The translations under genes and the position numbers were made by a program. Under the pieces are notes generated by a model. It was not told where the DNA came from, made no database searches, and was given only the letters and a program-made list of their open reading frames with translations. A stretch of 64,000 nt of DNA, from assembly GCA_003524085.1 (NCBI GenBank), contig DOEC01000006.1, forward strand, positions 1,146 through 65,145, in the 5' to 3' direction. Shown here piece by piece: positions 13,926 through 47,147 of this stretch. Numbering within the stretch: position 1 is the stretch's first letter; each line of letters begins with the position of its first letter. The DNA comes from Bacillota bacterium (GTDB lineage Bacteria; Bacillota_I; Bacilli_A; RF39; UBA660).

Positions 13926-15368
13926 TTAAACAATTGAGAATAACATCAATACTAAAATGTTTACTATTGCAATTGTTATAACTACTTTTAATGCCCATTT
14001 GAACCAAGTTGAATAGTCTACTTTAGCAAGAGCAAGTCCTCCCATTATTGCTCCACAAGTTGGAGTTATTAAGTTTACTAATCCATTTGCACTTACAATA
14101 GTCATAGCCGCTACTTCAGTTGAATAACCTAAGCTTGCAGCAAGTGGTCCAGTTATTGGAGTTGAAAGTGTTGCAAGTCCACTACTTGATGGTACTAAGA
14201 ATGATAACACTATATGTAGTAAGTAGTTTAGTGGAACGAATACTAATTCTGGTAGTTTACTTAAATGTTCAGTTGCATTATAAATAATGTAATTGTCTAA
14301 GTAAGTTTGTTTCATTAATACAGAAGCTCCTCTTGCTACTGCTATTACTAAGATAACACCTATCATATCTTTTGTTCCATCAATAAATGTATCTACAAAC
14401 TCTTTTTCTTTGTAACCATTGATTAAAGATATTACTATACTCATTAAGAAGAACCAAAGTGCAGACTCGTAGAAGTACCAGTTACCTAAACTAGAGCCTG
14501 TAAGCCATCCAGTAAATCCATCAAAGAAAGTTATGTCAAATTCTCCCCATGGAATAAATCCTATAATCATTATTAAGAATGTTAAAGCAAAAACACATAA
14601 AGTTATTTTTTGTTTTGTAGTTAAAACTTCTTTTTGCTTTGATTTTTCCTCAAATTTACCAAATTCTTTTTCAGCTTCTTCTTGCTCTCTTAAAGAAAGT
14701 ATAGTTGAACCTTTATCTTTTTTAACTTTACTTGCATAAGCTAACACAAACAATGTTGATATTAGGTAAGCTAATAACCATAAGATTATGCCTATAAATA
14801 ATACAGTTCCTTGATTATATTCTACACCAGCTGCTCTTAAAGCAGATAATACAGCTCCTGTTGCAAATGGGTTAACTGTTGAACCAAGAACACCAGTACC
14901 AGCACCTAATAAAACTACTGCTGCACCTACAAGTGGGTCCATTCCTGCGGCAAACATCGTAGCTGCTAGAAGTACGTAGAAGCCAACTGTTTCTTCAAGC
15001 ATTCCATATGTTGTACCACAAATTGAGAAGATAAACATTAATATTGGTATTAACCATAATTCTTTACCTTTTAATTTTTGTACTAAAACTTTGATACCTG
15101 TTTCTAAAGCCTTAGTTTTGTCTATTATTTTAAGGAATCCTCCTAAAATAAGTACGAATATTGCAACATCTACAGCATTTTCAAATCCCAATATTGGTGC
15201 TAGTAAGATTTGGCTTAATTTAGCCCCTACTGTACCACTTCCATTTACTATTTCTTCACCAACGAATTTAGCATCTGGTAGTAAATGTGAAAGAATTCCA
15301 AGTACTACTATAACTATCATTATAATAGTATATGCTGATAACATGCTTCTATTCTTTTTCTTTGTCAT
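13926..15368 (-). CDS. Polytopic membrane transporter, YfcC/DcuC-like anaerobic carrier family; putative arginine/ornithine exchanger of the ADI operon
   Basis: About 12 TM segments are present. It is co-oriented with and immediately upstream of arcC-arcB-arcA. The family assignment is from overall character, not from a diagnostic motif. Confidence 0.55.
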   Translation of the reverse strand: MTKKKNRSMLSAYTIIMIVIVVLGILSHLLPDAKFVGEEIVNGSGTVGAKLSQILLAPILGFENAVDVAIFVLILGGFLKIIDKTKALETGIKVLVQKLKGKELWLIPILMFIFSICGTTYGMLEETVGFYVLLAATMFAAGMDPLVGAAVVLLGAGTGVLGSTVNPFATGAVLSALRAAGVEYNQGTVLFIGIILWLLAYLISTLFVLAYASKVKKDKGSTILSLREQEEAEKEFGKFEEKSKQKEVLTTKQKITLCVFALTFLIMIIGFIPWGEFDITFFDGFTGWLTGSSLGNWYFYESALWFFLMSIVISLINGYKEKEFVDTFIDGTKDMIGVILVIAVARGASVLMKQTYLDNYIIYNATEHLSKLPELVFVPLNYLLHIVLSFLVPSSSGLATLSTPITGPLAASLGYSTEVAAMTIVSANGLVNLITPTCGAIMGGLALAKVDYSTWFKWALKVVITIAIVNILVLMLFSIV

Positions 15369-25483: not shown

Positions 25484-25559
25484 TTTGTTAGATGGTATTA
25501 TTATAGTACTAGGTACCATTTCTTTTGCTTGAGTTTCTGTTTTTTTCTTTTAATTTGAT

Positions 25560-25997
25560 TTCTTGTTTTCAAAGATAATTTATCGTATTCATTAATTTTT
25601 ATTTTTTTCTCTAAGTGCACGCTCACTTAAATTACCTCGTTTAAGTTATATTAATGTAATACTTGATTTCTCCTAAGTTTTTTAAAGGTAAAAGTAATTT
25701 ATAATGTGACCAAGTCAATTGGTCATCCAATGGATGACCTTTTTCAATAAAATTATGGAATAATCTCATGTATTTAAGATTTGTAATCCCGTAATTTGTA
25801 CCAAATTCTTTTGTTAATTCTTTTGCATACTTTTTAACTATACCTTCGCCGTAGTGTTTACCAGCTTCTGCTAATTCCTTTCCAATATTATAATTCATTG
25901 TTAGTTTTACATTGTTTATCTGATAATTCTTAACTATTAATTTAGCATTACCATTTATTATTTCACTCCTTATATTCTCTAAATAATTTTCTTCCAT
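25560..25997 (-). pseudogene. Fourth DUF1016/YhcG-like copy, frameshifted and 3'-truncated
   Basis: The intact 118-aa N-terminal ORF (MEENYLENIRSEIINGNAK...LTWSHYKLLLPLK) stops at 25638-25640. At that point a 1-nt insertion is present relative to paralog 3. Similarity decays downstream. Confidence 0.7.
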
Positions 25998-26204
25998 GAT
26001 TACATCCTTTCACCATTACAATTGCGTCTGTTTTAAATCTAGTGACAAAAATATTTTGTTTTAATATTCACGTATGTTTTCAAAATTAGTTTTCTCATAT
26101 TTTAAATATGAAATATAAACTTAGATAAATTCTTAATAAGAAATCTACTAGTTATCTTAAAAAATAATCTCATAATTTACTCTCCTTTCTAGGAAAGGCT
26201 TTTT

Positions 26205-26300
26205 AACCCTCCTAATATATTTATTCGACAAAAAACGTGAAAAGCCTTTTTTTATTTTAACTTTACGCGAAATTTAACGTGAAATTTTACACAAAAATGT
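26205..26300 (-). promoter_or_regulatory. Conserved leader element (copy 2), about 200 bp upstream of the truncated fourth copy
   Basis: It is near-identical to 13697-13790. The short TTACA...TGTAA segment is inverted relative to copy 1. Confidence 0.5.
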
Positions 26301-26372
26301 AAAATTTACTAGTGTTTTTATCATTGTCACTTAGTTGTCACTTTATATGTGATAAAATGACATAAATTTAGT

Positions 26373-26401
26373 TGATAAGTAAATTGATTTTTGCTATAAT
26401 A
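26373..26401 (+). promoter_or_regulatory. Sigma-A-type promoter of the Dlt-like cassette (TTGATA-N17-TATAAT)
   Basis: The hexamers were read directly. An AAGGAAG RBS lies before the ATG at 26430. Confidence 0.5.
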
Positions 26402-26429
26402 TTGATGTTTAAAAAAGGAAGTAAGAAGT

Positions 26430-27926
26430 ATGAAACAAGTATTAGAATATTTAGAAAAAAATGACAAAAATAAAACAGCAGTTATATGTGAAAATGAATC
26501 TATTACATATGAAGAGTTAATTAGTAAATCCAAACTAGTTGGGTCTAACCTTATAAATAAAGTTAAAATTAATGAACCAGTAATAGTTTTTATGGATAAA
26601 GGTATAACTACACTAGAAGTATTTTTTGGTATTTTATATAGTGGTGGGTGTTATAGTTTAGTAAATCCAGAGTTTCCTCAAAATAGAATTAAATCTATTT
26701 TAAATACTCTTGAAGCAAAATGCGTTATTACAAATATAGAAAACTATGAAAAAGCTAAAGAAGTTTTTAATGGAATAAATATAATTAAGTGTGAAGATTT
26801 AGTTAGTGGTAGTATTTTAGAAAGTGAATTAGAAAACATTAGAAGATCTAAACTAGACATAGACCCAGTATATATTAATTTTACAAGTGGTAGTACTGGG
26901 GTACCAAAAGGTGTTGTAGTAAGTAATAGAAGTATAATTGATTTTATTGATGTATTTACTAACCTATTTGATATTAAAGAAAGTGACATAATTGCAAACC
27001 AAGCACCATTTGATTTTGATGTTTCAGTAAAAGACATCTATAGCGCACTTTGTAAAGGTTCTACTTTGTTAATAGTACCAAAGAAATTATTTAGTAGTCC
27101 TGCTAATTTGCTTGATTACTTAGTTATAAACAACGCTACTACACTTATCTGGGCAGTCAGTGCATTATGTTTAATTACTACATTCCACGGCCTAGACTAC
27201 AAAGTTCCAACAAGTGTTAACAAAATAATCTATAGTGGTGAAGTAATGCCTCTTAAACACTTGAAAATATGGATGGATAAATTACCTAATGTAAGAGTAA
27301 TTAACGTATATGGTCCAACTGAAATAACTTGTAATTGTACATATCATGAAGTTGACAGAAGTAGAACTTATGTAGAAAATATTCCTATTGGTAAAAGTTT
27401 TCCTAATGAAAAAGTTTTCTTACTTGATGAAGAAAACAAACTAGTTAATACTCCTAATATTTCTGGAGAAATATGTGTAAGTGGAACTTGTCTTAGTTTA
27501 GGATACTATAATAATAAAGAAGTTACAGATAAAGTATTTATGCAAAACCCACTAAACAATAAATACATTGAACCTATTTATAAAACTGGAGACCTAGCAA
27601 TGTATGATGAAAATATGGACTTGTTTTTTAAAGGAAGAAAAGACTTTCAAATTAAATATATGGGCCACAGAATAGAGCTTGAAGAAATAGACACAGAAGT
27701 ACTTAAGTTAGATGGTGTTAAAAGATGTCTCACATTATTTGATGAAAAGAAAAGTAAACTTTGGTGTTTCTATGTAGGAGAAGTTACTAAAGAGGATATT
27801 ATATCTTTCTTAAAAGTAAATGTTCCAGAATACATGGTGCCTACTAAGTATGTTAAGTTAGAAGAGTTTACTCTTACTAAAAATGGTAAAATAGATAGAA
27901 ATGTATTAAAGGAGATGATTAAATGA
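26430..27926 (+). CDS. DltA-like carrier-protein ligase (adenylate-forming enzyme, AMP-binding superfamily)
   Basis: The AMP-binding motif is FTSGSTGVPKGV and YGPTE is present. The size (498 aa) and architecture match D-alanine--D-alanyl carrier protein ligase. Confidence 0.8.
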   Translation: MKQVLEYLEKNDKNKTAVICENESITYEELISKSKLVGSNLINKVKINEPVIVFMDKGITTLEVFFGILYSGGCYSLVNPEFPQNRIKSILNTLEAKCVITNIENYEKAKEVFNGINIIKCEDLVSGSILESELENIRRSKLDIDPVYINFTSGSTGVPKGVVVSNRSIIDFIDVFTNLFDIKESDIIANQAPFDFDVSVKDIYSALCKGSTLLIVPKKLFSSPANLLDYLVINNATTLIWAVSALCLITTFHGLDYKVPTSVNKIIYSGEVMPLKHLKIWMDKLPNVRVINVYGPTEITCNCTYHEVDRSRTYVENIPIGKSFPNEKVFLLDEENKLVNTPNISGEICVSGTCLSLGYYNNKEVTDKVFMQNPLNNKYIEPIYKTGDLAMYDENMDLFFKGRKDFQIKYMGHRIELEEIDTEVLKLDGVKRCLTLFDEKKSKLWCFYVGEVTKEDIISFLKVNVPEYMVPTKYVKLEEFTLTKNGKIDRNVLKEMIK

Positions 27927-29083
27927 ACTATGAAAATATTTTAAGTAAGTACTCTACTCCACTTTTTATCTATGACTGTGATAAGTTAGAACAAAGAGTT
28001 AATTACTTAAAAAATATGTTAGATACTGATTTATGTTATGCAATTAAAGCTAACTCATTTGTTATAAAAGAAATTGAACCATTAGTATCAAGAATTGAAA
28101 TATGTTCTTATGGAGAATACATGATATGTAAAGATAATGGTGTTAAAAATGATAAGATGGTATTAAGTGGGGTTAATAAAAACTATGATGAGTTTGAAAA
28201 AATTATAAAAGAAGAAAATAATATATTAAGATACACCATTGAAAGTATTACTCAGTTTAATATGTTAAAAGAGTTATCTAGTAAATATAAGAAGAATATT
28301 AATATACTACCTAGAATTACAAGTGGTAACCAGTTTGGAATTACAAAAGAAGAACTATATTATATAATAGAGAACTTAACAGAATTTATGACTTTAACAG
28401 GTATAGAATTCTTTAGTGGAACACAAAAACACAGTATTAAGAGAATTGTTAATGAGTTTACTCTAGTTAATGAGATATTTGATTATATAGAAAACACTTA
28501 TAAACTAACTGATTTAGAGTTAGAGTATGGTCCTGGGTTACCTGTTTACTATTTTGAAGAAGAGAGTTTTAATGAAGAAGAATTTTTAAATGAAGTTAAA
28601 AACAATATTCATACATTCTTTAAAGGTAGAAAAGTTATTCTTGAAATTGGAAGAAGTTTAGTAGCAAATTGTGGTGAATATATTACTAAAGTTGTTGATT
28701 TAAAAGAAAATAAGACTGGAAAATACGCTATTATTGATGGTGGAATTAATCATTTAGTATATTATGGTGGCACGATGGGAATGATGAGACCAAAGTTTGA
28801 AATACTAAACAAAAGTAATACCAAAGAAAATATATACAACATATTTGGGTCTCTTTGCACTATTAACGATATAATTGTTAAGAATGTAAGCTTGCCTGAG
28901 TTAGAAATAAATGATACATTTGTGTTTAAGAATACTGGAGCTTATTCAGTAACTGAAGGAATTAACCTATTTTTAAGTAGAGATATGCCTAAAGTGTTAC
29001 TGCTAAAAAATAAGAATGTGTTATTAGTAAGGGACAACATTAACACATATAAGCTAAATAGTCCTAATTATGGAGGTAAATAA
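27923..29083 (+). CDS. PLP-dependent fold-type III decarboxylase (Orn/DAP/Arg decarboxylase family 2, LysA-like)
   Basis: The PLP-lysine motif is YAIKANSF. An EIGRSLVANCGEY (EPGR) block, a DGG motif and a C-terminal GAYS block are also present. Confidence 0.75.
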   Translation: MNYENILSKYSTPLFIYDCDKLEQRVNYLKNMLDTDLCYAIKANSFVIKEIEPLVSRIEICSYGEYMICKDNGVKNDKMVLSGVNKNYDEFEKIIKEENNILRYTIESITQFNMLKELSSKYKKNINILPRITSGNQFGITKEELYYIIENLTEFMTLTGIEFFSGTQKHSIKRIVNEFTLVNEIFDYIENTYKLTDLELEYGPGLPVYYFEEESFNEEEFLNEVKNNIHTFFKGRKVILEIGRSLVANCGEYITKVVDLKENKTGKYAIIDGGINHLVYYGGTMGMMRPKFEILNKSNTKENIYNIFGSLCTINDIIVKNVSLPELEINDTFVFKNTGAYSVTEGINLFLSRDMPKVLLLKNKNVLLVRDNINTYKLNSPNYGGK

Positions 29084-29084
29084 A

Positions 29085-29315
29085 ATGGAAAAATTATTAG
29101 AAATATTAGAGGAAATCAAGCCTGGTGTAGACTATGAAAATATTGATACTTTAATTAATGACCACTACTTAGATTCACTTTCTATACTTTCTTTAATAAG
29201 TGAACTAGAAGATGAATTTGATATTGTTATACCAACAGTTGAAATAATACCAGATAACTTTAATTCAGTTAAAAGTATGATGGCTCTAATTAACAAATTA
29301 AAAGAGGAAGATTAA
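29085..29315 (+). CDS. Carrier protein (DltC/ACP-like, phosphopantetheine attachment site)
   Basis: The attachment motif is LDSLSILSLISELE and the protein is about 77 aa. An RBS GGAGG lies 8 nt before the ATG. Confidence 0.75.
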   Translation: MEKLLEILEEIKPGVDYENIDTLINDHYLDSLSILSLISELEDEFDIVIPTVEIIPDNFNSVKSMMALINKLKEED

Positions 29316-29317
29316 TT

Positions 29318-30883
29318 ATGCAATATAGTGAGTTATCTTACTTTCTTTTTTTACCTTTAGTAATGTTACTTTACACTTTTACTCCTAAGAAATTTAGATA
29401 CATTACTTTACTAGTAGCAAGTTTATTCTTCTTTTATACATTAAGTGGAAAATTATTAATTTATGTCGTATATAGTACTCTTATAATGTACTTTGCTTCT
29501 TTATTAATTGACCACTTTAATGAGTTAGAAGATAATATAAACGAAGAAATGCCTAAAGAAGAAAAGAAAGCTTTAAAATTAAAATATAACAAATATAAAA
29601 AAATAACTTTAGTAATTAGTATACTCTTGCTTTTGTCTACACTACTACTAACTAAATATTTGAACTTCTTTATTACAGTAATAAATGATGTATTTAAAAG
29701 TGGTTTATCTTTAACACGTATTCTAGCGCCTATTGGAATTAGTTTTTATACTTTTGAAGTATTGTCTTATTTAATAGATATATATCATAAAAAATATAAA
29801 GCTAATAAAAATATTTTGAAATGTGCCTTGTATATAGTGTTCTTCCCAACTTTAATGGAAGGACCAATTGCAAGGTATGAACAAATTAAAGATAGTTTAT
29901 TTAGTGGAGAAACAATTAATTATACTAATATGTGTTTTGCTCTTCAAAGAATAGTATATGGTCTTGGTAAAAAGCTTATTATTGCAGACAGATTAAATCC
30001 TATAGTAAAAATGATATTTAATAATTATAGTAACTATAATGGTGGAGTTGTTTTATTAGGTGGAATACTTTATACCATTCAGTTATATATGGACTTTTCT
30101 GGAATTATGGACATTGTAATTGGTAGTGGGCAGATATTTAATATTAAATTACCTGAAAACTTTAAACAACCATTTTTTTCTAAAAATATAAGTGATTTTT
30201 GGTCTAGGTGGCATATCACTCTTGGAACGTTTTTTAAAGACTATATCTTCTACCCTATTTCATTATCTAGAATTTCTAGAAATATTACTAAAATCCTAAG
30301 AAAAAAACTTGGTAGTCATTTTGGACCTTTAGTAAGTGGTTCAATTGCTTTATTAGCAGTTTGGCTAAGTAATGGTTTATGGCATGGAGCAGGATACCAA
30401 TACATCTTATTTGGAATGTATCACTTTGTACTAATCTTACTTGGTAATATATGTATGCCATTAATTAATAGATTTTATGATAAGACAAAAATAAATAAAG
30501 AAAGTGTTTTTGTTAAGTGTTTTAGCATTTTAAGAACTACTATATTAGTAATATTTGGAGAAATAATATTTAGATCAAACTCTGTAAAAGATGCATTATC
30601 TATGATTAAAAGAATATTTACTAACTTTAGTTTTGATATAGTTAAACCTTTAAATAAGATAGGACTAGACATATACGATATGATTATTATTTTAGTTACT
30701 CTTATTGTTATAGTGGTTATTAGTATTTTAAAAGAAAAGAATATTAACGTTAGAGAAATTATTAGTAAAAAGCCTATCTATATTAGATGGATAATCTATT
30801 ATGCTCTTATATTATATGTTTTAATCTTTGGTGCTTATTTGGGTCCATATATTCCGGTTGACCCAATGTATGCTAATTTTTAG
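29318..30883 (+). CDS. MBOAT-family membrane O-acyltransferase (DltB/AlgI-like)
   Basis: It is a polytopic 521-aa protein with a conserved His-containing MBOAT core (WSRWHITL, WHGAG). Confidence 0.8.
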   Translation: MQYSELSYFLFLPLVMLLYTFTPKKFRYITLLVASLFFFYTLSGKLLIYVVYSTLIMYFASLLIDHFNELEDNINEEMPKEEKKALKLKYNKYKKITLVISILLLLSTLLLTKYLNFFITVINDVFKSGLSLTRILAPIGISFYTFEVLSYLIDIYHKKYKANKNILKCALYIVFFPTLMEGPIARYEQIKDSLFSGETINYTNMCFALQRIVYGLGKKLIIADRLNPIVKMIFNNYSNYNGGVVLLGGILYTIQLYMDFSGIMDIVIGSGQIFNIKLPENFKQPFFSKNISDFWSRWHITLGTFFKDYIFYPISLSRISRNITKILRKKLGSHFGPLVSGSIALLAVWLSNGLWHGAGYQYILFGMYHFVLILLGNICMPLINRFYDKTKINKESVFVKCFSILRTTILVIFGEIIFRSNSVKDALSMIKRIFTNFSFDIVKPLNKIGLDIYDMIIILVTLIVIVVISILKEKNINVREIISKKPIYIRWIIYYALILYVLIFGAYLGPYIPVDPMYANF

Positions 30884-30894
30884 GAGGTAATGTT

Positions 30895-31818
30895 ATGAAA
30901 AATATATTAAAATCCACATTATTTTTAAGTATACTTTTAGTTATCATTATATATATGGGAAAAATCTTTACTCCTAAAGATAACACTTTAGAAAGTGGGA
31001 TGAATGAAGTAAGAGCTAATGGAATACTTGGAGAAAAAGATGATATTGATGTTATTATAATTGGAGACTCTTTAACATACAGTTCATTTATACCAATTGA
31101 GATGTATAAAGAATACGGGTTTACTTCATATGTAATGGGTACTCATGCACAAAGAAGTCATGATACTTATAAGTTACTTAAGAATGCTCTTAATTATCAA
31201 AAACCTAAAGTTGTAGTACTTGAAACTAATCTTTTATTTAGAAAATATAGTTTTAATAGAGATATGCTTAGTAAGCTTGAAACAATACTACCTTTCTTTG
31301 ATTATCATAATAGATGGAAAAATCTAAGTTTTAAAGATTTTACTAGTGAAATTAATTATACTTACACTGACCCGACTAAAGGATATATGTTAAAGAAAAG
31401 TGTTAAAAGTGGAAAGACTTATAATTATATGAAAAAAGATAGTAAAGTTACTCATATAGTTAATAGAAATTATGTTTATTTAGAGAAAATAAAAAAGTTA
31501 TGCAGTGAAAATAATATCAAGCTAATTTTGGTAAGCGCATCAAGTGAAAGGAATTATAACTTTAGTAAACATGAAAGTATTGAAAAATATGCAACCAAGA
31601 ATAAAATAGACTATATTGATTTAAACTTAGAAGATGTTAAAATTGACTGGGAAAAAGATACTACTGATAAAGGAGATCATTTGAATTATTTGGGAGCTTT
31701 AAAAGAAAGCAAGTTTTTTGGTAATATTTTAAAAGATAGGTATAATCTGGTAGATAAAAGAGGTACACTAGAAAGTTGGGATAAACTAGAAATGGTGTAC
31801 AATAAAAAAGCTAGATAG
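30895..31818 (+). CDS. Extracytoplasmic SGNH/GDSL-like protein (DltD/AlgJ-like partner of the MBOAT)
   Basis: It has a signal-anchor N-terminus and GDSL block I (VIIIGDSLTYSS). Confidence 0.6.
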   Translation: MKNILKSTLFLSILLVIIIYMGKIFTPKDNTLESGMNEVRANGILGEKDDIDVIIIGDSLTYSSFIPIEMYKEYGFTSYVMGTHAQRSHDTYKLLKNALNYQKPKVVVLETNLLFRKYSFNRDMLSKLETILPFFDYHNRWKNLSFKDFTSEINYTYTDPTKGYMLKKSVKSGKTYNYMKKDSKVTHIVNRNYVYLEKIKKLCSENNIKLILVSASSERNYNFSKHESIEKYATKNKIDYIDLNLEDVKIDWEKDTTDKGDHLNYLGALKESKFFGNILKDRYNLVDKRGTLESWDKLEMVYNKKAR

Positions 31819-32170
31819 TATAACATACTACACTAGCTACTGCATAAACTTCATCATGCGTAATTGAAAGGCTAAATTTTAGTCTTTCTTTTTTTATGTA
31901 TTCACTTAGTTTTCCATAGAAATTAAAGTAAGGCATGCCATTATTATGTAACACTTCTATATCAAGGATACTATATACGCTTAAATTTACTCCTAAGCTT
32001 TTTAAAAGAGCTTCTTTGGCAGCGAATACTCCCGCCTTTGTTTCTATGCTTTTATGACTAGCAAAATACTCTAATTCACTACTTGTAAACACACTACTTA
32101 ATTTTTTTATTTTGTTTATACTTTCAACCCTGACTATATCTATTCCATTAGTTATCATTTTTTTCCTCAA
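31811..32170 (-). CDS. acpS: Holo-[acyl-carrier-protein] synthase (4'-phosphopantetheinyl transferase)
   Basis: The GIDIVRV and FAAKEALLKSLG motifs are present and the protein is about 119 aa. Confidence 0.85.
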   Translation of the reverse strand: MRKKMITNGIDIVRVESINKIKKLSSVFTSSELEYFASHKSIETKAGVFAAKEALLKSLGVNLSVYSILDIEVLHNNGMPYFNFYGKLSEYIKKERLKFSLSITHDEVYAVASVVCYTI

Positions 32171-34127
32171 GAGTACTTTCTTTTTGCGCTACTTTTTTAA
32201 AGTAGTCTGTTTTTAATGTTAAATCATTCTTCTTTATTAATTCACTTATATAGTGGTTCATGTTTTCTAAGTCAGTTATATTTATCCATTTACCATTAGT
32301 TACTTCTCCACCCTCAACATAAACTTTTCCGTTATACCAAGAGTAATCACTAAAGAATACGTATCCATTATAATTTTTAGATAGAGCATTAGTACCTATA
32401 TAATTATTAGAATTATAGTCTATCCCATATAAATTAAGTATTGTTGGAAGTATATTTAACTGACTTGTTACATCAGTAACTGTCTTTTTACTCTTACCAT
32501 CATATATAAAGAATGGTGTATGATTTATCAAGTTATTTGATGTTTCCTTGTATTTATCTAGTATAGTTTGGTCACTTAATGTATATAAGTAATGATCAGT
32601 AAATACGACTATTGCTGTGTTAGACATAAGATTTTTTTCTTCAAGTTTATTTAGAAGAAGTTCTACCATATAGTCTGTTTCTTTTGCTTGTCTTAAAGCA
32701 CATTCTTCTTCTGTTAATGTAGGTAATTTATAGTCTTTTGGAAGTTTGTCAACATTCAAGTTTTCTAAAGCATCTAATTCTACTAATCTTTTACATACAC
32801 CTTTTTCAGTACTAAATGGTAAGTGACTACTATAAGTAATGATATAGTCTACAAATTTTTTTTCACTAAACATTCTATTACTAAAGTCCTCATTTAAAAT
32901 TAGTTCTCTATCTAACTCATATTCTTTATTTTTATACTCATACATATCAACTAGACCATAATAGTTATCATATCCCCAGTTTTTATAGTTAACTCCCCTA
33001 CTATAGAATTCGCTTGTATTCATGTGAAATGCATTAACCGAATAGCCTAAGTTCTTAAATAGTTTTGACAAAGTATAAGGAAATGTGTTTTTACTAAATG
33101 AATAAGCGTTTTGTGTATAACTTAGTGGTGTTATAAAACCAGTATTAACAGCAAATTCACTATTAAAAGTACTTCCTCCACCATTATAATATGAGTAATG
33201 ATTTTTAAAGTTTATTCCTTTATTCATTAGTTTATATAAAGTTGGAGTGTTTTCTTTAGTTAACATCCACGAGTCTACACCTTCTAATTGAAGTATTATT
33301 AAGTTTTTGTCTTTTAATAAACCAGTGTACCTATCTGTAGTTTTTTCATCTTCCATGTTATAAATACCATCTAAAAATGACATTTCTTCTTCGCTAGTTG
33401 TTTTTTTAGGTTTTAAGAATGTTACATAAAAATTTCTTACATTGTATTCATAAAATCCACTTATTCTCATACTTTTATTGTTATCATTAAAGCTTATGTA
33501 AATGTTTCTAGGATTACGCCAGGTTGACCAAGTAAGTTCTTTGTCAGATTTTCCGTACACTAGTGGTGTAAGAGTGTGTCCTACTAAGAAGATTACTAAA
33601 ATTACTGCTAGTTTTTTATATCTATTTTTTTCTACTTTTGGATAAAATTTAAATAAGTATATAGTTAAAGATAATATTAAAAGCATAAGTATGTAAACCC
33701 ATATGTTACAGTTAATAATCGCATCCATGAAGTAGCCTGAGCCTTCTCCTGCAAGTAATACTAGAGAAAAATCAAAGAATGTATCTGTCATACTATAGTA
33801 GACATTGTTTACTGTAAACAAGGCAAAACTAAGGATAAAAAATACTACGTATATAGATTTACCTATTTTTCCCTTAAATGAAGTACTAAGTCCAATTATT
33901 AGAGTTACCCATAATAAAGTAAATAAATTTGGGGCTAATCTATATATGCCATAAAAGTTTATTTTATATCCTAAAATTCTTGTAAACAAGTCCATCAATA
34001 TAAATGGAATACTTATTAATATTATACTTTTATTTCTTATAAAAAAGGCGATTATCTTTTTAAATATGTTATCTTTTTCTTTTATATTTTTCTTTTTTTC
34101 TTTCACATCTTTTTTCATTTTAATCAC
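32148..34127 (-). CDS. LtaS-like lipoteichoic acid synthase family protein (5-TM N-terminus plus extracellular sulfatase/alkaline phosphatase-like domain)
   Basis: It has an N-terminal polytopic segment followed by a large extracytoplasmic domain. Its size is 659 aa. Confidence 0.75.
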   Translation of the reverse strand: MIKMKKDVKEKKKNIKEKDNIFKKIIAFFIRNKSIILISIPFILMDLFTRILGYKINFYGIYRLAPNLFTLLWVTLIIGLSTSFKGKIGKSIYVVFFILSFALFTVNNVYYSMTDTFFDFSLVLLAGEGSGYFMDAIINCNIWVYILMLLILSLTIYLFKFYPKVEKNRYKKLAVILVIFLVGHTLTPLVYGKSDKELTWSTWRNPRNIYISFNDNNKSMRISGFYEYNVRNFYVTFLKPKKTTSEEEMSFLDGIYNMEDEKTTDRYTGLLKDKNLIILQLEGVDSWMLTKENTPTLYKLMNKGINFKNHYSYYNGGGSTFNSEFAVNTGFITPLSYTQNAYSFSKNTFPYTLSKLFKNLGYSVNAFHMNTSEFYSRGVNYKNWGYDNYYGLVDMYEYKNKEYELDRELILNEDFSNRMFSEKKFVDYIITYSSHLPFSTEKGVCKRLVELDALENLNVDKLPKDYKLPTLTEEECALRQAKETDYMVELLLNKLEEKNLMSNTAIVVFTDHYLYTLSDQTILDKYKETSNNLINHTPFFIYDGKSKKTVTDVTSQLNILPTILNLYGIDYNSNNYIGTNALSKNYNGYVFFSDYSWYNGKVYVEGGEVTNGKWINITDLENMNHYISELIKKNDLTLKTDYFKKVAQKESTLEEKNDN

Positions 34128-34252
34128 GTATATATTGTACCAAATATCTTACTGTTTGTCTAGATGGTCTTAACATATTTAAATATAACTAGTATTATTT
34201 TTTTCTAAATAAAAAGAAAAAACTTTAGTTAATTTTTATTTACTTTTAATAA

Positions 34253-34570
34253 TTATTTGACTAACTTTATATCAATTATATCTTTAATGTCTATTACTTC
34301 GTTGTTTATTGTTAATAATTTAGTTTTATCCCTAGCTATTAAAGTGCAAGATTTGTCTCCATTTTTTGTGGTTACACACACATTTACTTTATATATAAAG
34401 TTGTTACTTGAAAATATATCGTTAATCTTTTTTCTTATTAGTATTTCTTTCATGTTATCATCTATTATTTTTGTTTCATTTAAATTATCTTTTCCATAGT
34501 AAAATTCTTCATTGTTTTTTATTATTCCAGTATTTTTATTTACAAATATATTAGGTAGTTTTTTATTCAT
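34253..34570 (-). CDS. Hypothetical small protein
   Basis: ORF only. Confidence 0.35.
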   Translation of the reverse strand: MNKKLPNIFVNKNTGIIKNNEEFYYGKDNLNETKIIDDNMKEILIRKKINDIFSSNNFIYKVNVCVTTKNGDKSCTLIARDKTKLLTINNEVIDIKDIIDIKLVK

Positions 34571-34625
34571 AGTTTCCCCCTAGTAAAGTGTATGATTATT
34601 TTTTTATTTAATTCCATAATTTAGC

Positions 34626-34656
34626 AGTTGACTATACAAACAAAGACGTGTTATAC
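34626..34656 (+). promoter_or_regulatory. Sigma-A-type promoter of the Y-family polymerase operon (TTGACT-N17-TATACT)
   Basis: The hexamers were read directly. The spacer and downstream region contain AACA/TGTT inverted repeats but no canonical Cheo box. Confidence 0.45.
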
Positions 34657-34684
34657 TTAATGCGAACAAAGGATGGTGTTTGTC

Positions 34685-35929
34685 ATGGAAGAAAGAAATA
34701 TTTTATGTATTGATTTAAAGAGTTTTTTTGCTTCAGTTGAATGTATTGAAAGAAATTTAGACCCGTTTACTACTCCCTTAATTGTTGCTGATCCATCTAG
34801 AAAAGGTGGGGCGATTACTCTTGCAGTTACTCCATATATGAAAACTCTTGGTGTACCTTCTCGTGGAAGAGTTTTTGAGATACCTAAAGGAATTAAATAT
34901 ATTACAGCTACTCCTAGAATGAGTTTGTATGTTAAGAAAAGTAAAGAAGTTATTAATTGTTTTTTAGATTTTGTAAGTAAAGAAGATATGCATGTGTACT
35001 CTATAGACGAAGCGTTTTTAGATGTTACTGATTATTTAAAGTTATATAAGATGGATGATGTTACTTTAGCTAAAAACATAATGGCTAGAATTAAAGAGAA
35101 GACAGGACTTACTAGTACGTGTGGAATTGGGCCCAACTTACTTCTTGCTAAGGTTGCACTTGATATTGAGAGTAAACATAGTCCTGACTTTATCGCTAAG
35201 TGGACTTATGAAGATGTGAAGACTAAGTTATGGAATATAACACCATTAGACGAGATGTGGGGAATTGGATCTAAAACTATGAAAAAACTAAATGATCTAG
35301 GAATATATAAGGTTGGAGATATTAATAAGTATGGTAAAGAGTTTTATAAGAAAAGATTTGGTGTGTTAGGCGAAGAGTTGTATTTGCACGCGAATGGGAT
35401 AGATTATAGTAATATTAAAAATGATAGATATGAAGTTAAAAATAAAAGTTATGGACTTAGTCAGATATTATATAAAGATTATACTCCTAGTGAAGTTATT
35501 TTAATTGTTAAAGAGATGTGTGAGACCGCTACTAAAAGACTTAGAAGTAATAAAAAAGCATGCGAAGTAGTTGGTTTTGGTATTGGATACTCTAGAAGTG
35601 TTGGTGGTGGGTTTTATCATTCTAAGAAGTTATCTTCTCCTACTGATAAAGATAGCGTTATTTATGAAGTGTGCAAAAGTATACTTGATGCGTATATTGA
35701 AGAACTTCCTATTAGAAAGGTAAGTATTTCTCTTGGTAAATTAAGTGATAATAATTATGTACAGTTAAATTTATTTGATACAAACGAAGAAAGTTATGAT
35801 GAGACTATGAAAACAATTGACGAGATAACTAAGAGATTTGGGGATAATGCTATTTTAAAAGCGTCTAGTTTACTTGATTATAGTACAATTAAAATGCGTA
35901 ATAAGAAGATGGGTGGACATAATAAGTAA
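34685..35929 (+). CDS. Y-family DNA polymerase (UmuC/DinB-like, YqjW/UvrX-type)
   Basis: The N-terminus ILCIDLKSFFASVE is a palm-domain motif. The start chosen has an AAGGATGG RBS. Confidence 0.85.
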   Translation: MEERNILCIDLKSFFASVECIERNLDPFTTPLIVADPSRKGGAITLAVTPYMKTLGVPSRGRVFEIPKGIKYITATPRMSLYVKKSKEVINCFLDFVSKEDMHVYSIDEAFLDVTDYLKLYKMDDVTLAKNIMARIKEKTGLTSTCGIGPNLLLAKVALDIESKHSPDFIAKWTYEDVKTKLWNITPLDEMWGIGSKTMKKLNDLGIYKVGDINKYGKEFYKKRFGVLGEELYLHANGIDYSNIKNDRYEVKNKSYGLSQILYKDYTPSEVILIVKEMCETATKRLRSNKKACEVVGFGIGYSRSVGGGFYHSKKLSSPTDKDSVIYEVCKSILDAYIEELPIRKVSISLGKLSDNNYVQLNLFDTNEESYDETMKTIDEITKRFGDNAILKASSLLDYSTIKMRNKKMGGHNK

Positions 35930-35939
35930 TGGTGATATT

Positions 35940-36245
35940 ATGTATAGAAAAATGATTAAATGGAAACCATTTAATACCTTACTTAAGTATAAAGATATTT
36001 TAGAAATTGATAAAAATAGACAGTTAGTTGATAAGCCTGTTATTATGGAAGACAGGATATATGAAATTAATGATGTGTTAAAGAGTGTGAATTCTTCTAC
36101 TTTAGTTAGAGTAAAATATTTTAATAAAGGAATGCTATTATATAAAGAAGGATATGTTAGTAAAATTGATACAATAGAAAAATATATTCTAATAGATAGA
36201 TTTAGAATATATTTTAGGGAACTTATTAAAATTGAAGTTATTTAG
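35940..36245 (+). CDS. YolD-like protein (UmuD-like accessory partner of Firmicutes Y-family polymerases)
   Basis: It is small (about 100 aa), has an MIKWKPF-type N-terminus and lies immediately downstream of the polymerase. Confidence 0.55.
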   Translation: MYRKMIKWKPFNTLLKYKDILEIDKNRQLVDKPVIMEDRIYEINDVLKSVNSSTLVRVKYFNKGMLLYKEGYVSKIDTIEKYILIDRFRIYFRELIKIEVI

Positions 36246-37102: not shown

Positions 37103-37220
37103 AATGTAGCCCCCTTAATTACTATAATTATACCATATTTGGTACTGTTTTGTCAAAAATTTGTGCTTTTATTTTTTAGGGTTAATTGATATAATTATAA
37201 TAGGTAAAGGTAGGGATTAT

Positions 37221-39230
37221 ATGGACAACGTTTTAAGTGAACTAGTGAAAAAACTAGAAAAAGGAGAAAGTGTAAGTAATTTAGTCAGTGAATTTAAAAT
37301 CAGTGAGTTTGAGCTTTTTGGTTATGTAAGAAAGTTAAAGGAAACTGGTATTAATGTTATTAGGACTGAAAAGAATAATGAAGTTAGACTAATAATTAAT
37401 CACCATCCTGATTATACAAAAGAAAATGTATATAATATTAATGTGGACGTAAACTTGAATACTAAGTTTGCTGTTATAAGTGATACTAGATTTGGTTCAA
37501 CAAACGAGCAAATTGCTATTTTAAATGACTTATATAAAAAGTTTTTAGAGTGTGGTGTTACATATGTAATTGTAGCAGGAAATTTACTTGAAGGCGAATA
37601 TAAAAACAACGATGTTTATGAATATGGTAAAAGTTTAATTAGTAATACTAGTATTGGGCAAGCTAATCATTTATTAGAGTTTTATCCTAAGGTAACTGGT
37701 ATTACTACTCTTTTTATTACAGGAAAAACTGACCATACTTGGAGTAAAGAGTTAAATGTTGGAGAATATATTAGTAGTAACAGAGATGATTTAATTTATT
37801 TAGGGCCTAAAAGTGCAACTATTAATTTTAATAAAGTTATGTTTAGGGTTGAGAATTTGAAAAAGCAAGGAGAAAGCTATACTATCGCATATCCACCACA
37901 GAAGTATTCTAGAAGTATGCCTAGTTATGAAGATTATGACGCGATATTTTTAGGTGGCACATTGACTGCACAGGAGTTTCCCACAATTAGAGATACTAAG
38001 ATGTTTGCAATACCTTCTGTAGTTGCTAGAACTCCAAAGATGAGAAATTTAAGTCAACAAAATACTATAGGTGCGTATGTTTTTGATATTAGTTATACTA
38101 AAAATGGAAAATTAAAGAGTATGAAGTCTACACTTATTCCCTACTACGTTCCTAGTAAAGAAAACTATATTACAATAAAGCCTCTTATAATAAGTGATAG
38201 TAAAGATAATGTTAAAGTTAAGCCTGTTAAAGATAATATGACTAGTATGTTAGATAGAATATATAGAAATATTAAGAAGGAAGAGAGTTTTAGTGATTTG
38301 ATGAATAGACTTTCAATTAATGAAAATGAACTTTATGGCGTGATTGACCTACTTCAAGAAAGAGGAAGAGATATTGGTATTAGTGAAATTGATGGGGTTC
38401 TTGTCGTTAGAAAAAATGTTAAAAAAATTAGAAAGACTGAGATAAAGCTACCTAAAGAAGAATTACATAAAAAGGTGTTTCTAGTTGTAAGTGATACGCA
38501 TTACGGAAGTATTTATAGTCAGCCTTCTATGGTAAATACATCTGTTTATGAAGCTTATAACCGTGGAATTACTGATATATTTCATGTTGGAGATATTACT
38601 GATGGAGATTATAGTAGAATTAGGCCAATACATAATTATGAAGTGTTTTTATATGGTGCGACTGGACAGCTTGAGTACACCTTAAATACTTTGCCTAAGT
38701 TTCCTGGAATGAAGTGGCACATTATTACTGGAAGTCATGATCAAACTCACCTATTTAATTATGGAGTCGATATTGGAAAAGAATTAGAAAAAAGAAGAGA
38801 CGATATTGAGTTTCTTGGGCAAGACAGAGGCTTTTATTATTTTGACAACTGCAAGATGGAGCTATTTCATCCAGGTGGTGGGACAAGCAGAATACTTTCT
38901 ACAAAGCCACAGAACGGAATTGATCAGATACCAAGTCATACTAAACCTAAAATCAGTTTAAGAGGACATTACCACAAGTCTTATTATATGTTTTATAGAA
39001 ATGTTCACACTTTCTTGTGTCCATGTAATGTTGATACATCTTCATTTATGATGAAAAATGAGATACCTAATTTGATGGGAAATTATTTCATTACTATTTG
39101 GTATGACGATAATGGAGATATTGAATATTTAGAAACTGAACCTATGATTTTTACTAATGAAGATGTGACTTACAGAGATTTTGAAAATCCTAAAAAGTTT
39201 ATAAAAAGCAAAATTAATAAAAAAATTTAA
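37221..39230 (+). CDS. Internally duplicated protein: two tandem modules, each an HTH-like domain followed by a calcineurin-like metallophosphatase domain
   Basis: Module 1 has VISDTRFGS...VIVAGNLLEG. Module 2 has LVVSDTHYGS...FHVGDITDGD. Each is preceded by a similar roughly 70-aa helical segment. Confidence 0.65.
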   Translation: MDNVLSELVKKLEKGESVSNLVSEFKISEFELFGYVRKLKETGINVIRTEKNNEVRLIINHHPDYTKENVYNINVDVNLNTKFAVISDTRFGSTNEQIAILNDLYKKFLECGVTYVIVAGNLLEGEYKNNDVYEYGKSLISNTSIGQANHLLEFYPKVTGITTLFITGKTDHTWSKELNVGEYISSNRDDLIYLGPKSATINFNKVMFRVENLKKQGESYTIAYPPQKYSRSMPSYEDYDAIFLGGTLTAQEFPTIRDTKMFAIPSVVARTPKMRNLSQQNTIGAYVFDISYTKNGKLKSMKSTLIPYYVPSKENYITIKPLIISDSKDNVKVKPVKDNMTSMLDRIYRNIKKEESFSDLMNRLSINENELYGVIDLLQERGRDIGISEIDGVLVVRKNVKKIRKTEIKLPKEELHKKVFLVVSDTHYGSIYSQPSMVNTSVYEAYNRGITDIFHVGDITDGDYSRIRPIHNYEVFLYGATGQLEYTLNTLPKFPGMKWHIITGSHDQTHLFNYGVDIGKELEKRRDDIEFLGQDRGFYYFDNCKMELFHPGGGTSRILSTKPQNGIDQIPSHTKPKISLRGHYHKSYYMFYRNVHTFLCPCNVDTSSFMMKNEIPNLMGNYFITIWYDDNGDIEYLETEPMIFTNEDVTYRDFENPKKFIKSKINKKI

Positions 39231-39310: not shown

Positions 39311-39387
39311 GGGGAATTAGCTCAGTTGGCTAGAGCACCTGCCTTGCACGCAGGGGGTCGCGGGTTCAAGTCCCACATTCTCCACCA
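39311..39387 (+). tRNA. tRNA-Ala (UGC)
   Basis: A cloverleaf can be drawn by eye. The anticodon loop is CUUGCAC, the G3:U70 Ala identity pair is present, the CCA is encoded and there is one T-stem mismatch. Confidence 0.85.
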
Positions 39388-40489: not shown

Positions 40490-41443
40490 TTATCCCCCAT
40501 AATTAATATAATATTCATAATATTCATCAAATGTTATATTCTCATTATGTATAATTCTTGCAGCATTTGAGCCAACATATCTTAGTCTCCATGCATCATA
40601 TGAGAATCCTGTTATGTTTTCTTTATCCTTTGGATATCTTAAAATAAAGCCATATTTGTAAGCATTTTCCAAAATCCATGTGTGTTCTGGACTGTTTTCC
40701 ATGTCTGAGCCTTCTGTATAAAGTGGCTTTACTACAACACTTAGACCAGTTTGATATTCTGAGTGACCAGGACGTGCTGCAACTTTATCGGCATAGTCTA
40801 CACCACTACTTGCTTCAATATCATTATATGCTTCTTCTTGATCAGCATAACTTCTATATCCTTGACTTACTACTAAATTATATCCACTTTCTTTAGCAGC
40901 GTCTAGCATATTTGTAAGACTATCATACATCATTTTACTTACTTGTTTTCCTTCATATGCATAGCTTAAACTAACGTCTACTAAATCACTTGGCACGTAG
41001 GTTTCTGATAGCTTGTAAAATTTATTTACTAACATCAATTCTCCTTTTGAAGTGTCTGTATCTGCTATACTTTTGTACCAGCCTAAAGATGCTTTTGTGT
41101 TTACTTTAGCTACTATATCAGTTAAATTACCATTATTTTCATTTATATAATCCAAGTATTTATCTAAGTTTGCAAATATAAACTTTTTTTCTTTCATTAG
41201 TTTTGTTATGTTTACATTGTATTTATGATTTAGTAATGTGTTAATCTCGTCTTCTTTTAAAGTCTTAATGTATTCTATTTCATTATCAGAATAGCCTACT
41301 TCGCCCAGTTTGTATTCTATGGTTTTTCTCAAATTGCTTTCATCTATTAAAGATTTAATACCTATTATAACTACTACCAAAATTACTACAACAATACCTA
41401 CAAATACTCCTAATTTTTTAACATTTAATTTTTTCTTTGTCAA
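40490..41443 (-). CDS. Membrane-anchored D-alanyl-D-alanine carboxypeptidase (VanY / M15B family)
   Basis: It has an N-terminal TM and M15-like SxGYRS (SQGYRSYADQ) and H..E (PGHSEYQTG) blocks. Confidence 0.65.
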   Translation of the reverse strand: MTKKKLNVKKLGVFVGIVVVILVVVIIGIKSLIDESNLRKTIEYKLGEVGYSDNEIEYIKTLKEDEINTLLNHKYNVNITKLMKEKKFIFANLDKYLDYINENNGNLTDIVAKVNTKASLGWYKSIADTDTSKGELMLVNKFYKLSETYVPSDLVDVSLSYAYEGKQVSKMMYDSLTNMLDAAKESGYNLVVSQGYRSYADQEEAYNDIEASSGVDYADKVAARPGHSEYQTGLSVVVKPLYTEGSDMENSPEHTWILENAYKYGFILRYPKDKENITGFSYDAWRLRYVGSNAARIIHNENITFDEYYEYYINYGG

Positions 41444-46130: not shown

Positions 46131-46207
46131 TGGTCGGGAAGACAGGATTTGAACCTGCAACCACTCGGTCCCAAACCGAGTGCTCTACCAAGTTGAGCCA
46201 CTTCCCG
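46131..46207 (-). tRNA. tRNA-Pro (UGG)
   Basis: A cloverleaf can be drawn by eye. The anticodon loop is UUUGGGA and the CCA is encoded. Confidence 0.85.
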
Positions 46208-46212
46208 ATAAA

Positions 46213-46289
46213 TGGCGTCCCCAAGAGGAGTCGAACCCCTAACCTTTTGATCCGTAGTCAAACGCTCTATCCAGTTGAGCTATGAGGAC
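46213..46289 (-). tRNA. tRNA-Arg (ACG)
   Basis: The anticodon stem-loop UUUGA-CUACGGA-UCAAA is identical to B. subtilis tRNA-Arg(ACG). The CCA is encoded. Confidence 0.85.
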
Positions 46290-46332
46290 AGCCTGTCCAA
46301 AATATATATAAGCTCCGGCTGGCTTTTAAAAA

Positions 46333-46408
46333 TGGTGGCTTCAGTTGGAATCGAACCAACGACACCAAGATTTTCAGTCTTGTGCTCTGCCAACTGAGCT
46401 ATGAAGCC
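46333..46408 (-). tRNA. tRNA-Phe (GAA)
   Basis: The anticodon loop is CUGAAAA and the 5' end is GGCUUCAUAGCUCAGUUGG. Confidence 0.85.
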
Positions 46409-46412
46409 ACAA

Positions 46413-46488
46413 TGGCGGTTCCGACGGGAATTGAACCCGCGATCCCTCGCGTGACAGGCGAGTGTGATAACCGCTACACCACGGAACC
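46413..46488 (-). tRNA. tRNA-Asp (GUC)
   Basis: The anticodon loop is CUGUCAC. Confidence 0.85.
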
Positions 46489-46495
46489 TTATTTT

Positions 46496-46572
<77 letters not shown>

Positions 46573-46590
46573 ATGTTAGTTTTTTAATTT

Positions 46591-46683
46591 TGGCGGAGGA
46601 AAAGGGATTTGAACCCCTGCGCCGCTTTCACGACCTCCTGGTTTTCAAGACCAGTCCCTTCAGCCAGACTTGGGTATTCCTCC
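46591..46683 (-). tRNA. tRNA-Ser (UGA)
   Basis: It has a long variable arm and the anticodon loop CUUGAAA. The acceptor is GGAGGAA/UUCCUCC. Confidence 0.85.
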
Positions 46684-46690
46684 AACAAGA

Positions 46691-46779
46691 TGGTGCCTCG
46701 GGCCGGACTTGAACCGGCACGGTATTTAACTACCGAGGGATTTTAAGTCCCTTGCGTCTACCAATTTCGCCACCGAGGC
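46691..46779 (-). tRNA. tRNA-Leu (UAA)
   Basis: It has a long variable arm and the anticodon loop CUUAAAA. Confidence 0.85.
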
Positions 46780-46803
46780 GTGTCACAATTTTTTATTAAA
46801 AAA

Positions 46804-46879
46804 TGGTGACCCGCTGGAGATTCGAACTCCAGACCCCTTGATTAAAAGTCAAGTGCTCTACCGGCTGAGCTAGCGGGTC
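46804..46879 (-). tRNA. tRNA-Lys (UUU)
   Basis: The anticodon loop is CUUUUAA. Confidence 0.85.
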
Positions 46880-46891
46880 AATATTATAAAT

Positions 46892-46967: not shown

Positions 46968-46974
46968 ATCTAAG

Positions 46975-47058: not shown

Positions 47059-47065
47059 AAAAAAA

Positions 47066-47141
<76 letters not shown>

Positions 47142-47147
47142 AAATTA

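Follow-up and report, generated by a model that had tools for sequence, protein, structure and literature searches.

What does a Dlt-like gene cassette load onto its carrier protein when an amino-acid decarboxylase is built into it, and where is the loaded group delivered? This question was raised by a locus on contig DOEC01000006.1 of a Bacillota bacterium, within a stretch of 64,000 nucleotides (nt) and ~27% G+C that is referred to here as the window, and whose proteins are 93-95% identical to those on contigs of uncultured human-gut Bacilli and Eubacteriales metagenome-assembled genomes. The cassette occupies positions 26430-31818 on the forward strand, with its neighbours on the reverse strand extending to 34127 (Table 1). 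It consists of five same-strand genes encoding an adenylating ligase, a pyridoxal phosphate (PLP)-dependent decarboxylase, a carrier protein, a membrane-bound O-acyltransferase (MBOAT) plus a membrane-anchored SGNH protein, with junctions that are either a 4-nt overlap or gaps no longer than 11 nt. The best explanation, in which we place moderate confidence, is that decarboxylation of a carrier-tethered amino acid is coupled to an MBOAT/SGNH relay, the whole forming an envelope amino-acylation pathway. The order of the five genes, with the convergent genes for AcpS and an LtaS-like enzyme downstream, was just as a sequence-only reading of this DNA had described it; the open reading frames (ORFs) were exactly in place, and their domains were recognized by Pfam and NCBIfam or, for the SGNH protein, by a structure model. 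The motifs that had been quoted earlier (YAIKAN, EIGRSLVANCGEY, GAYS, and DSLS) were all found in the translations.

The arrangement of the genes was widely conserved. When metagenomes were scanned with the decarboxylase family, 80 loci (38-100% identity) were obtained out of at least 530 relatives, and the fractions given here and below count the loci with enough flanking DNA. The ligase gene lay directly 5' of the decarboxylase gene in 65 of 68 loci, and the carrier gene lay directly 3' of it in 75 of 76. The MBOAT gene came next after this triad in 54 of 68 loci, with three further loci carrying an MBOAT pair upstream, and the SGNH partner was present in 48 of 60. A second sampling, made through the SGNH partner and independent of the decarboxylase, comprised nine look-ups, six of which returned full cassettes, one a cassette without the decarboxylase (L093), one an MBOAT/SGNH pair alone (L010/L011), and one a lone SGNH gene (L095). 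The triad behaves as an autonomous module, most often feeding the MBOAT/SGNH pair. In 22 of 58 loci (L006-L009, L020, L031-L068, L092-L094, L096, and L097), though not in the window, an orthologous OmpR-type two-component system, made up of a response regulator and a histidine kinase, was located directly upstream in the same orientation, an arrangement that recalls the control of dlt by envelope stress.

The PLP enzyme matched the Pfam models Orn_DAP_Arg_deC (3.5e-14) and Orn_Arg_deC_N (4.9e-12), both over their cutoffs, whereas the match to Ala_racemase_N was weak (23.1 bits versus a cutoff of 24.1) and far poorer than those to the decarboxylase models. Its landmarks were the PLP-binding Lys42 in YAIKAN, the E241-x-G243-R244 motif, C312 in CTIND, and G339-A340-Y341, and the residues K42, E241, G243, R244, C312, D316, G339, A340, and Y341 were invariant in the decarboxylase family. 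The best NCBIfam match was the lysA equivalog TIGR01048, with 174.8 bits, under the cutoff of 297.9. The LysA motifs RPxLY and CESGD were replaced, the aligned positions reading NHLVYYGG and CTIND in this protein and [NH][HQ][LM]VYYG and CTIND across the family. These versions resemble DGGMHHH and CTPED of BtrK, the L-glutamyl-[BtrI] decarboxylase of butirosin biosynthesis, and DGG[IM]xH and C-T-x-x-D were common to the PLP enzyme and BtrK. Judged by its score and its motifs, the enzyme is not an ordinary LysA, the identity that the sequence-only reading had named as fatal to its own proposal. When the PDB was searched with a profile built from 32 family sequences, BtrK ranked first (147.6 bits, E 4.4e-42), SbnH scored 140.4 bits, and the LysA structures reached at most 136.5 bits. 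The subfamily of BtrK and SbnH decarboxylates amino acids that are conjugated through the side chain (PMC7857480). The profile ranking and the shared motifs are suggestive of an affinity of the PLP enzyme with BtrK.

On-carrier decarboxylation, for which BtrK alone had been cited earlier, proved to have four reconstituted precedents (BtrK, CtaF, FlvO, and VinO). In the BtrJ/I/K system of butirosin biosynthesis, the loader is an ATP-grasp enzyme and Glu is converted to 4-aminobutyrate on the carrier (PMC11350588, PMC7183216); in the CtaD/E/F system of closthioamide biosynthesis, the loader is again an ATP-grasp enzyme and Asp is converted to β-alanine, CtaF being from a clostridial organism (PMC7183216). 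Adenylation enzymes serve as loaders in FlvN/L/O of fluvirucin biosynthesis, which also converts Asp to β-alanine (PMC11350588, PMC11284099), and in VinN/L/O, where 3-methylaspartate is converted to 3-aminoisobutyrate on VinL (PMC11284099); both systems serve macrolactam pathways. In butirosin, closthioamide, and fluvirucin biosynthesis, the amino acid is joined to the carrier via its side-chain carboxyl (PMC11350588). The cassette resembles these thiotemplated triads in the clustering of a loader, a stand-alone carrier, and a decarboxylase of the ornithine/diaminopimelate/arginine (Orn/DAP/Arg) family. Its loader is an adenylating ligase as in VinN and FlvN, unlike the ATP-grasp enzymes BtrJ and CtaD, and there is no gene for a second ligation or protecting step. 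The known triads belong to secondary-metabolite lines (aminoglycoside, polythioamide, and polyketide), whereas the triad of the cassette precedes an MBOAT and an extracytoplasmic SGNH protein. A further likeness was seen to the exosortase-A-associated pair TIGR03098/TIGR03099, which combines an AMP-forming ligase with a DAP-decarboxylase-like PLP enzyme. The ligase scored 170.3 bits against TIGR03098 (cutoff 592.35) and the PLP enzyme 158.8 bits against TIGR03099 (cutoff 478.45), but no exosortase or PEP-CTERM genes were present in the window. We know of no functional characterization of the exosortase-associated pair itself.

The ligase scored 311 bits against TIGR01733 and fell below the cutoffs of the DltA equivalogs TIGR01734 (285.9 versus 559.85 bits) and NF003417 (299.8 versus 476 bits). 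Its best matches in the PDB were the adenylation (A) domain of LgrA, where the best single domain reached 203.6 bits, and DltA, with ~182 bits; on these scores, it is about equally similar to the A domains of nonribosomal peptide synthetases (NRPS) and to DltA. A prediction of the specificity pocket, which the sequence-only reading had proposed as a check, was made by aligning the ligase to LgrA with HMMER and mapping the Stachelhaus positions through this alignment and known motifs of GrsA. The pocket consisted of D197, V198, K201, W241, I267, S269, V293, C301, N302, and K487 (DVKWISVCNK). The code read DVKW[LIM]S[LVI]CNK in a set of 67 unique cassette ligases that reached down to 45% identity, and its residues D, K, W, S, C, N, and K never varied; this constancy argues that all the triads activate one and the same substrate. 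The Asp235 of the pocket indicates that the substrate bears an amino group. In Glu-activating A domains, which have the code DAKDLGVVDK, the Lys at Stachelhaus position 239 binds the side-chain carboxylate. The Lys239 of the cassette pocket would likewise fit an acidic amino acid, so that of the two kinds of substrate considered earlier, acidic or dibasic, the former agrees with the pocket and the latter is disfavoured by this invariant residue.

The carrier was encoded by an ORF at 29070-29315, and the likely start was the ATG at 29085, which has GGAGG 8 nt upstream. The DSLS motif reported earlier was present, but the length of 77 amino acids (aa) given with it was less likely than the 76 aa listed in Table 1, as was the 81-aa product of a start at 29070. 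The DSL of this motif was kept in homologues. Weak NCBIfam matches to AmcB, AsbD, and DltC were all below cutoff, the scores against the DltC models being 28.2 versus 68 bits (NF003464) and 16.2 versus 52.35 bits (TIGR01688). A gene for AcpS was located near the cassette in 14 of 58 metagenome loci, and was convergent with it also in L003-L009; the convergent placement beside the cassette recurred in several divergent lineages. This recurrence fits a role of AcpS in priming the carrier.

The MBOAT contained the catalytic residues His299 (RWHITL) and His356 (LWHGAG), both kept in homologues, and scored 153.6 bits against the DltB model TIGR04091, whose cutoff is 375. A DltB has a length of about 400-420 aa. 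Two solved DltB proteins aligned to residues 134-389 only, with ~130 residues remaining beyond. In this C-terminal extension, a hydropathy scan revealed hydrophobic helices at 452-470 and 491-509. The motif xYxxF was found within the last 20 residues of 61 of 62 unique cassette-linked MBOATs, mostly as P[ILM]YA[NDG]F, and as the canonical FIYAQF or FIYGNF in distant relatives; its position 1 was Pro, not Phe, in most close relatives. No DltX-like ORF was found in 25900-32300. In bacterial MBOATs apart from DltB, two additional transmembrane (TM) helices lead to a terminal acyl-shuttle hexapeptide, FxYxxF, whose Tyr becomes acylated and then hands the group to the SGNH partner, whereas DltB has no shuttle element and the microprotein DltX is used instead (PMC12148441). 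The C-terminal helices and the putative shuttle motif would thus explain both the unusual size of the MBOAT and the absence of DltX. Where the sequence-only reading saw a DltB and a DltD of odd size, the difference in size was real, but the architecture was that of PatA/PatB, with a fused Tyr shuttle and without DltX. By this architecture, the membrane half of the cassette is of the PatA/PatB type and not of the DltB/DltX/DltD type. In a contig that is 99% identical to the window (L013:8396-9960), the MBOAT was split into ORFs of 211 and 353 aa, owing to a frameshift or an assembly error.

The likeness to PatA/PatB, and also to AlgI/AlgJ/AlgX, WssH/WssI, and the secondary cell wall polysaccharide acetyltransferases, lies in the combination of an MBOAT of ~500 aa or more with a separate SGNH partner. 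NgPatA ends in FIYANF and the cassette MBOAT in PMYANF, both with two extra C-terminal TM helices. Unlike the PatA/PatB-type systems, which are described as having no carrier and using acetyl-CoA (PMC12148441), the cassette has the ligase-decarboxylase-carrier triad in its operon, and a carrier-fed PatA-type MBOAT would be a new combination. The literature searched on the themes of MBOAT, decarboxylase, carrier, SGNH, and teichoic acid turned up no description of the cassette combination; one lead, PMC8336468, was set aside as it concerned an unrelated transporter cluster named btrK.

The fifth protein of the cassette gave nothing meaningful against Pfam and NCBIfam even at E up to 10. Its AlphaFold2 (AF2) model, with a pLDDT confidence score of 95.9, consisted of a TM helix at residues 2-25 and an SGNH fold, and Foldseek matched it to GDSL enzymes with probability 1.00 and E ~1e-6. 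The residues G57-D58-S59 and H262 were invariant in 48 sequences (this protein and 47 homologues), and the residues near the His read D258-K-G-D261-H262, not the classic DxxH. The earlier assignment to the SGNH/GDSL enzymes was borne out by this fold, but nothing marked the protein as specifically DltD-like, and it did not classify as a member of the DltD family. The SGNH-partner family comprised 3,091 clusters at 50% identity. One member (P0244) was 924 aa long with two matched stretches and is possibly a fusion, and another homologue (P0197) had a precomputed Pfam match, PF27429.1, so that a newer Pfam release may already define the family. At L006:11008-12920, and in the same form in L020, two tandem paralogues of the SGNH partner, of 316 and 314 aa, followed the MBOAT.

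In the mechanism that we propose, AcpS would turn the 76-aa carrier into its holo form, and the ligase would adenylate an amino acid with a second, acidic group and thioesterify it to the carrier. The likeliest substrate would be L-Asp or L-Glu, joined via the side-chain carboxyl. The PLP enzyme would then strip the free α-carboxyl from the tethered substrate, giving β-alanyl-S-carrier or 4-aminobutyryl-S-carrier; the β-alanyl form is favoured because 4-aminobutyryl thioesters and esters cyclize readily and the cassette contains no protecting second ligase. On the cytoplasmic face of the membrane, the MBOAT would take the acyl group from the carrier and pass it via His356 onto its own Tyr518 at the outer face, where Ser59 of the SGNH protein would collect it and esterify a surface polymer, for example one resembling teichoic acid. 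The net effect would be like that of D-alanylation, namely the addition of a protonated amine to the envelope.

Several observations weigh against this explanation. The LtaS-like neighbour was not conserved, being found beside the cassette in only 5 of 58 loci, all of them close relatives, and adjacency to LtaS was dropped as a general clue to the acceptor. The margin by which BtrK surpassed LysA in the profile search, ~11 bits, was small, and it was reversed in a search of the PDB with the single sequence, which ranked LysA first (99.2 bits versus 86.2 bits for BtrK). The AF2 model of the PLP enzyme (pLDDT 87.6) gave Foldseek TMq values of 0.84-0.86 for LysA and BtrK alike, with LysA structures as the top matches, and the fold search was abandoned as a means of telling the two apart. 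L093 (2532-9863) is a natural variant of the cassette without the decarboxylase, in which a two-component system, the ligase, the carrier, the MBOAT (PVDPLYAQF), the SGNH partner, and an extra GDSL lipase follow one another. The L093 ligase, 64% identical to the ligase of the full cassette in L094, had the identical pocket code. Lys239 therefore does not strictly co-vary with a decarboxylase in cis, and it is weakened as an argument for loading before decarboxylation.

The ranking of LysA in the single-sequence search and the L093 variant would both suit a pathway in which the decarboxylase acts on a free amino acid (Asp to β-alanine, Glu to 4-aminobutyrate, or DAP to Lys) and the ligase loads the product for the MBOAT and SGNH proteins. 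Free substrates are indeed what most Orn/DAP/Arg-family enzymes use, and the pocket kept by L093 without a decarboxylase would be explained most simply if the substrate of the ligase were the same either way. We nevertheless regard this pathway as unlikely. The enzymes BtrK, CtaF, VinO, and FlvO, which are clustered with a carrier and a loader, act on the tethered substrate, and CtaF does not accept free Asp (PMC7183216). The distal-carboxylate motif of LysA, RPxLY, was absent from the PLP enzyme, and the invariant Lys239 argues against Lys as the substrate of the ligase and would have no obvious role with β-alanine or 4-aminobutyrate. In almost every locus, moreover, the decarboxylase gene stood between those of the ligase and the carrier and overlapped or abutted these neighbours.

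Carrier-tethered decarboxylation coupled to the MBOAT/SGNH relay also has to be weighed against a division of the cassette into two separate modules, in which the MBOAT and the SGNH protein would be an acetyl-CoA-dependent pair like PatA/PatB and the triad would feed another cytoplasmic acceptor, such as a sugar nucleotide, a lipid, or a small molecule. Acetyl-CoA is the donor for those MBOATs with a fused shuttle motif that have been characterized (PMC12148441). At L010/L011 (7330-9933), an isolated MBOAT (45% identical) and SGNH partner (47%) were located beside a ribosomal-protein operon, and no ligase, decarboxylase, or carrier was found within 7-9 kb of the pair. The triad, in turn, occurred without the MBOAT in 11 of 68 loci. 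In L077 (674-7899) and L078, the MBOAT-less triad was part of a sugar-nucleotide modification cluster with genes for an oxidoreductase-like protein, a hexapeptide acyltransferase, a DegT-family aminotransferase, a glycosyltransferase, and a protein like UDP-GlcNAc 2-epimerase, and the same acyl group may there be attached to an amino sugar. At L084 (4660-9248), the MBOAT-less triad was flanked by a type II thioesterase on its upstream side and by an Rce1/CPBP-like membrane protease on its downstream side, and at L076 (5255-10122; also L083, L087, L088, L090, and L091) the triad preceded a 254-aa protein that matched FliD_C weakly and a protein with a SEC-C-like C-terminus. Such a division is quite unlikely in our view, since the MBOAT gene followed the triad directly in the 54 loci counted above, over the range of 38-100% identity, on the same strand and with gaps of a few nt. 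The cassette encodes no other transferase for a carrier-bound group, and DltB shows that an MBOAT can draw an acyl group from a carrier protein. The recurrent genomic context thus argues for the carrier as the donor of the MBOAT.

The cassette shares with Dlt a stand-alone ligase, a small phosphopantetheinylated carrier, an MBOAT relay, and a membrane-anchored SGNH finisher, and the Dlt transfer chain runs from a Tyr-ester to a Ser-ester to the polymer (PMC12148441). With this common logic, the cassette could be the dlt equivalent of the lineage, installing D-alanine or a plain α-amino acid, with the PLP enzyme acting as a racemase, an epimerase, or an accessory protein. The weak match to Ala_racemase_N would accord with such a role, and a VanY-type D-Ala-D-Ala carboxypeptidase encoded in the window (40490-41443) implies that D-Ala metabolism exists and that the organism makes D-Ala-containing peptidoglycan. 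This equivalence is improbable, however, since the cassette failed every Dlt equivalog test, all four models being missed by wide margins, and since the PLP enzyme keeps the motifs of the decarboxylase family and scores far above the racemase model. The pocket code of the ligase, with its Lys239, also differs from what we take to be the code of DltA.

That the PLP enzyme is an ordinary LysA merely co-located with a Dlt-like cassette is very improbable, for although LysA was its top match in NCBIfam, in the single-sequence PDB search, and in Foldseek, the equivalog score was well below cutoff, both LysA motifs were replaced, and the strict synteny with ligase and carrier across deep divergence would be unexpected for a housekeeping gene of lysine biosynthesis.

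Table 1. Features of the cassette and its neighbours in the window.
Feature	Position	Strand	Evidence or remark
Sigma-70-like promoter (putative), TTGATA-17-(TG)TATAAT	26372..26400	+	11/12 match, extended-10 TG; 30 nt 5' of the ligase ATG
Stand-alone adenylating ligase, 498 aa, ANL/NRPS A-domain type	26430..27926	+	AMP-binding 3e-59
Fold-type III (alanine-racemase-fold) PLP decarboxylase, 386 aa	27923..29083	+	4-nt overlap of its start with the ligase stop
Carrier, 76 aa, phosphopantetheine-attachment Ser31 in LDSLS	29085..29315	+	PP-binding 3.7e-05
MBOAT, 521 aa	29318..30883	+	Pfam MBOAT 9.3e-15, 55.2 bits versus cutoff 27
C-terminal hexapeptide P-M-Y518-A-N-F of the MBOAT, putative acyl-shuttle motif of FxYxxF type	30863..30880	+	C-terminus PVDPMYANF
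SGNH partner, 307-aa type-II membrane protein with N-terminal TM helix and extracytoplasmic SGNH domain	30895..31818	+	AF2 model, alignment
Terminator-like hairpin followed by a T run	31866..31888	+	Within convergent acpS, 48 nt beyond the last gene of the cassette
AcpS-type 4'-phosphopantetheinyl transferase, 119 aa	31811..32170	-	ACPS 7.5e-11; TIGR00556 59.2 bits, cutoff 45.35
LtaS-like enzyme, 659 aa, five N-terminal TM helices and sulfatase-fold domain	32148..34127	-	Sulfatase 1.1e-28

The sequence-only reading had all five genes driven from a consensus promoter. The site listed in Table 1 was indeed the top match within 25500-35000, but promoter-like sites as a class were not enriched in this region (69 observed versus 65.7 expected from shuffles), so that its function as a promoter is putative. 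No internal terminator-like sites were found in the cassette, and co-transcription of the five genes is likely. The Rfam scan of the window returned tRNAs only, with no riboswitch ahead of the cassette, and a paralogue search found no second ligase, MBOAT, carrier, or decarboxylase elsewhere in the 64-kb window.

On the opposite strand, the 3' end of acpS overlapped the SGNH gene by 8 nt, and acpS was co-oriented with the LtaS-like gene, overlapped it, and is probably co-transcribed with it. The LtaS-like protein had the architecture of LtaS but scored 95.3 bits against the NCBIfam LtaS model, whose cutoff is 970, and its PDB matches were LtaS and LtaP ectodomains only; its catalytic Thr (STF), Glu (LEG), and Asp-His (DHY) aligned to those of the S. 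aureus eLtaS.

Elsewhere in the window, three tandem 302-aa paralogues of the YhcG/DUF1016 PDDEXK nuclease were encoded at 10944-13694, and a 118-aa YhcG/DUF1016 fragment with the N-terminal domain only, probably a gene remnant, was found just upstream of the cassette (25641-25997). A DcuC-type C4-dicarboxylate carrier at 13926-15368 represents a possible route of C4-dicarboxylate uptake. A gene for a Y-family DNA polymerase with IMS domains and an overlapping YolD-like gene (34673-36245) formed a typical translesion-synthesis pair, and a 689-aa ORF at 37161-39230 had a weak, sub-threshold match to calcineurin-like phosphoesterases and was otherwise unannotated. Twelve tRNA genes on the reverse strand (46134-47224) accounted for a local G+C peak of 0.40, and a lone tRNA gene was located on the forward strand at 39311-39384.

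In Gram-positive bacteria, surface charge, resistance to cationic peptides, and interaction with the host all depend to a large extent on the D-alanylation of teichoic acids. If the proposed pathway is correct, it would be a new envelope decoration in gut commensals, doing a job like that of D-alanylation with a different acyl group, and the metagenome scan, in which at least 530 related stretches were counted, shows that the cassette is common in uncultured human-gut Bacillota. It is experimentally tractable, as four of the proteins concerned (the ligase, the carrier, AcpS, and the decarboxylase) are soluble or easily expressed. In its full form, which we put forward tentatively, the reading is that many gut Bacillota decorate an envelope polymer with a non-proteinogenic ω-amino-acyl ester, β-alanyl or 4-aminobutyryl, that is made by decarboxylation of Asp or Glu tethered to a carrier protein and exported by a carrier-dependent PatA-type MBOAT acylating its own C-terminal Tyr. 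It would be a decoration that alters envelope charge in parallel to D-alanylation and was not recognized before. This MBOAT might then be the first known PatA-type enzyme to depend on a carrier protein, and in many lineages the pathway might be under dedicated two-component control, which we likewise hold as a possibility short of an even expectation. Thiotemplated decarboxylation, known from antibiotic biosynthesis, would thereby be joined with polymer acylation by MBOAT and SGNH proteins, and MBOATs with a fused shuttle would not be confined to acyl-CoA donors.

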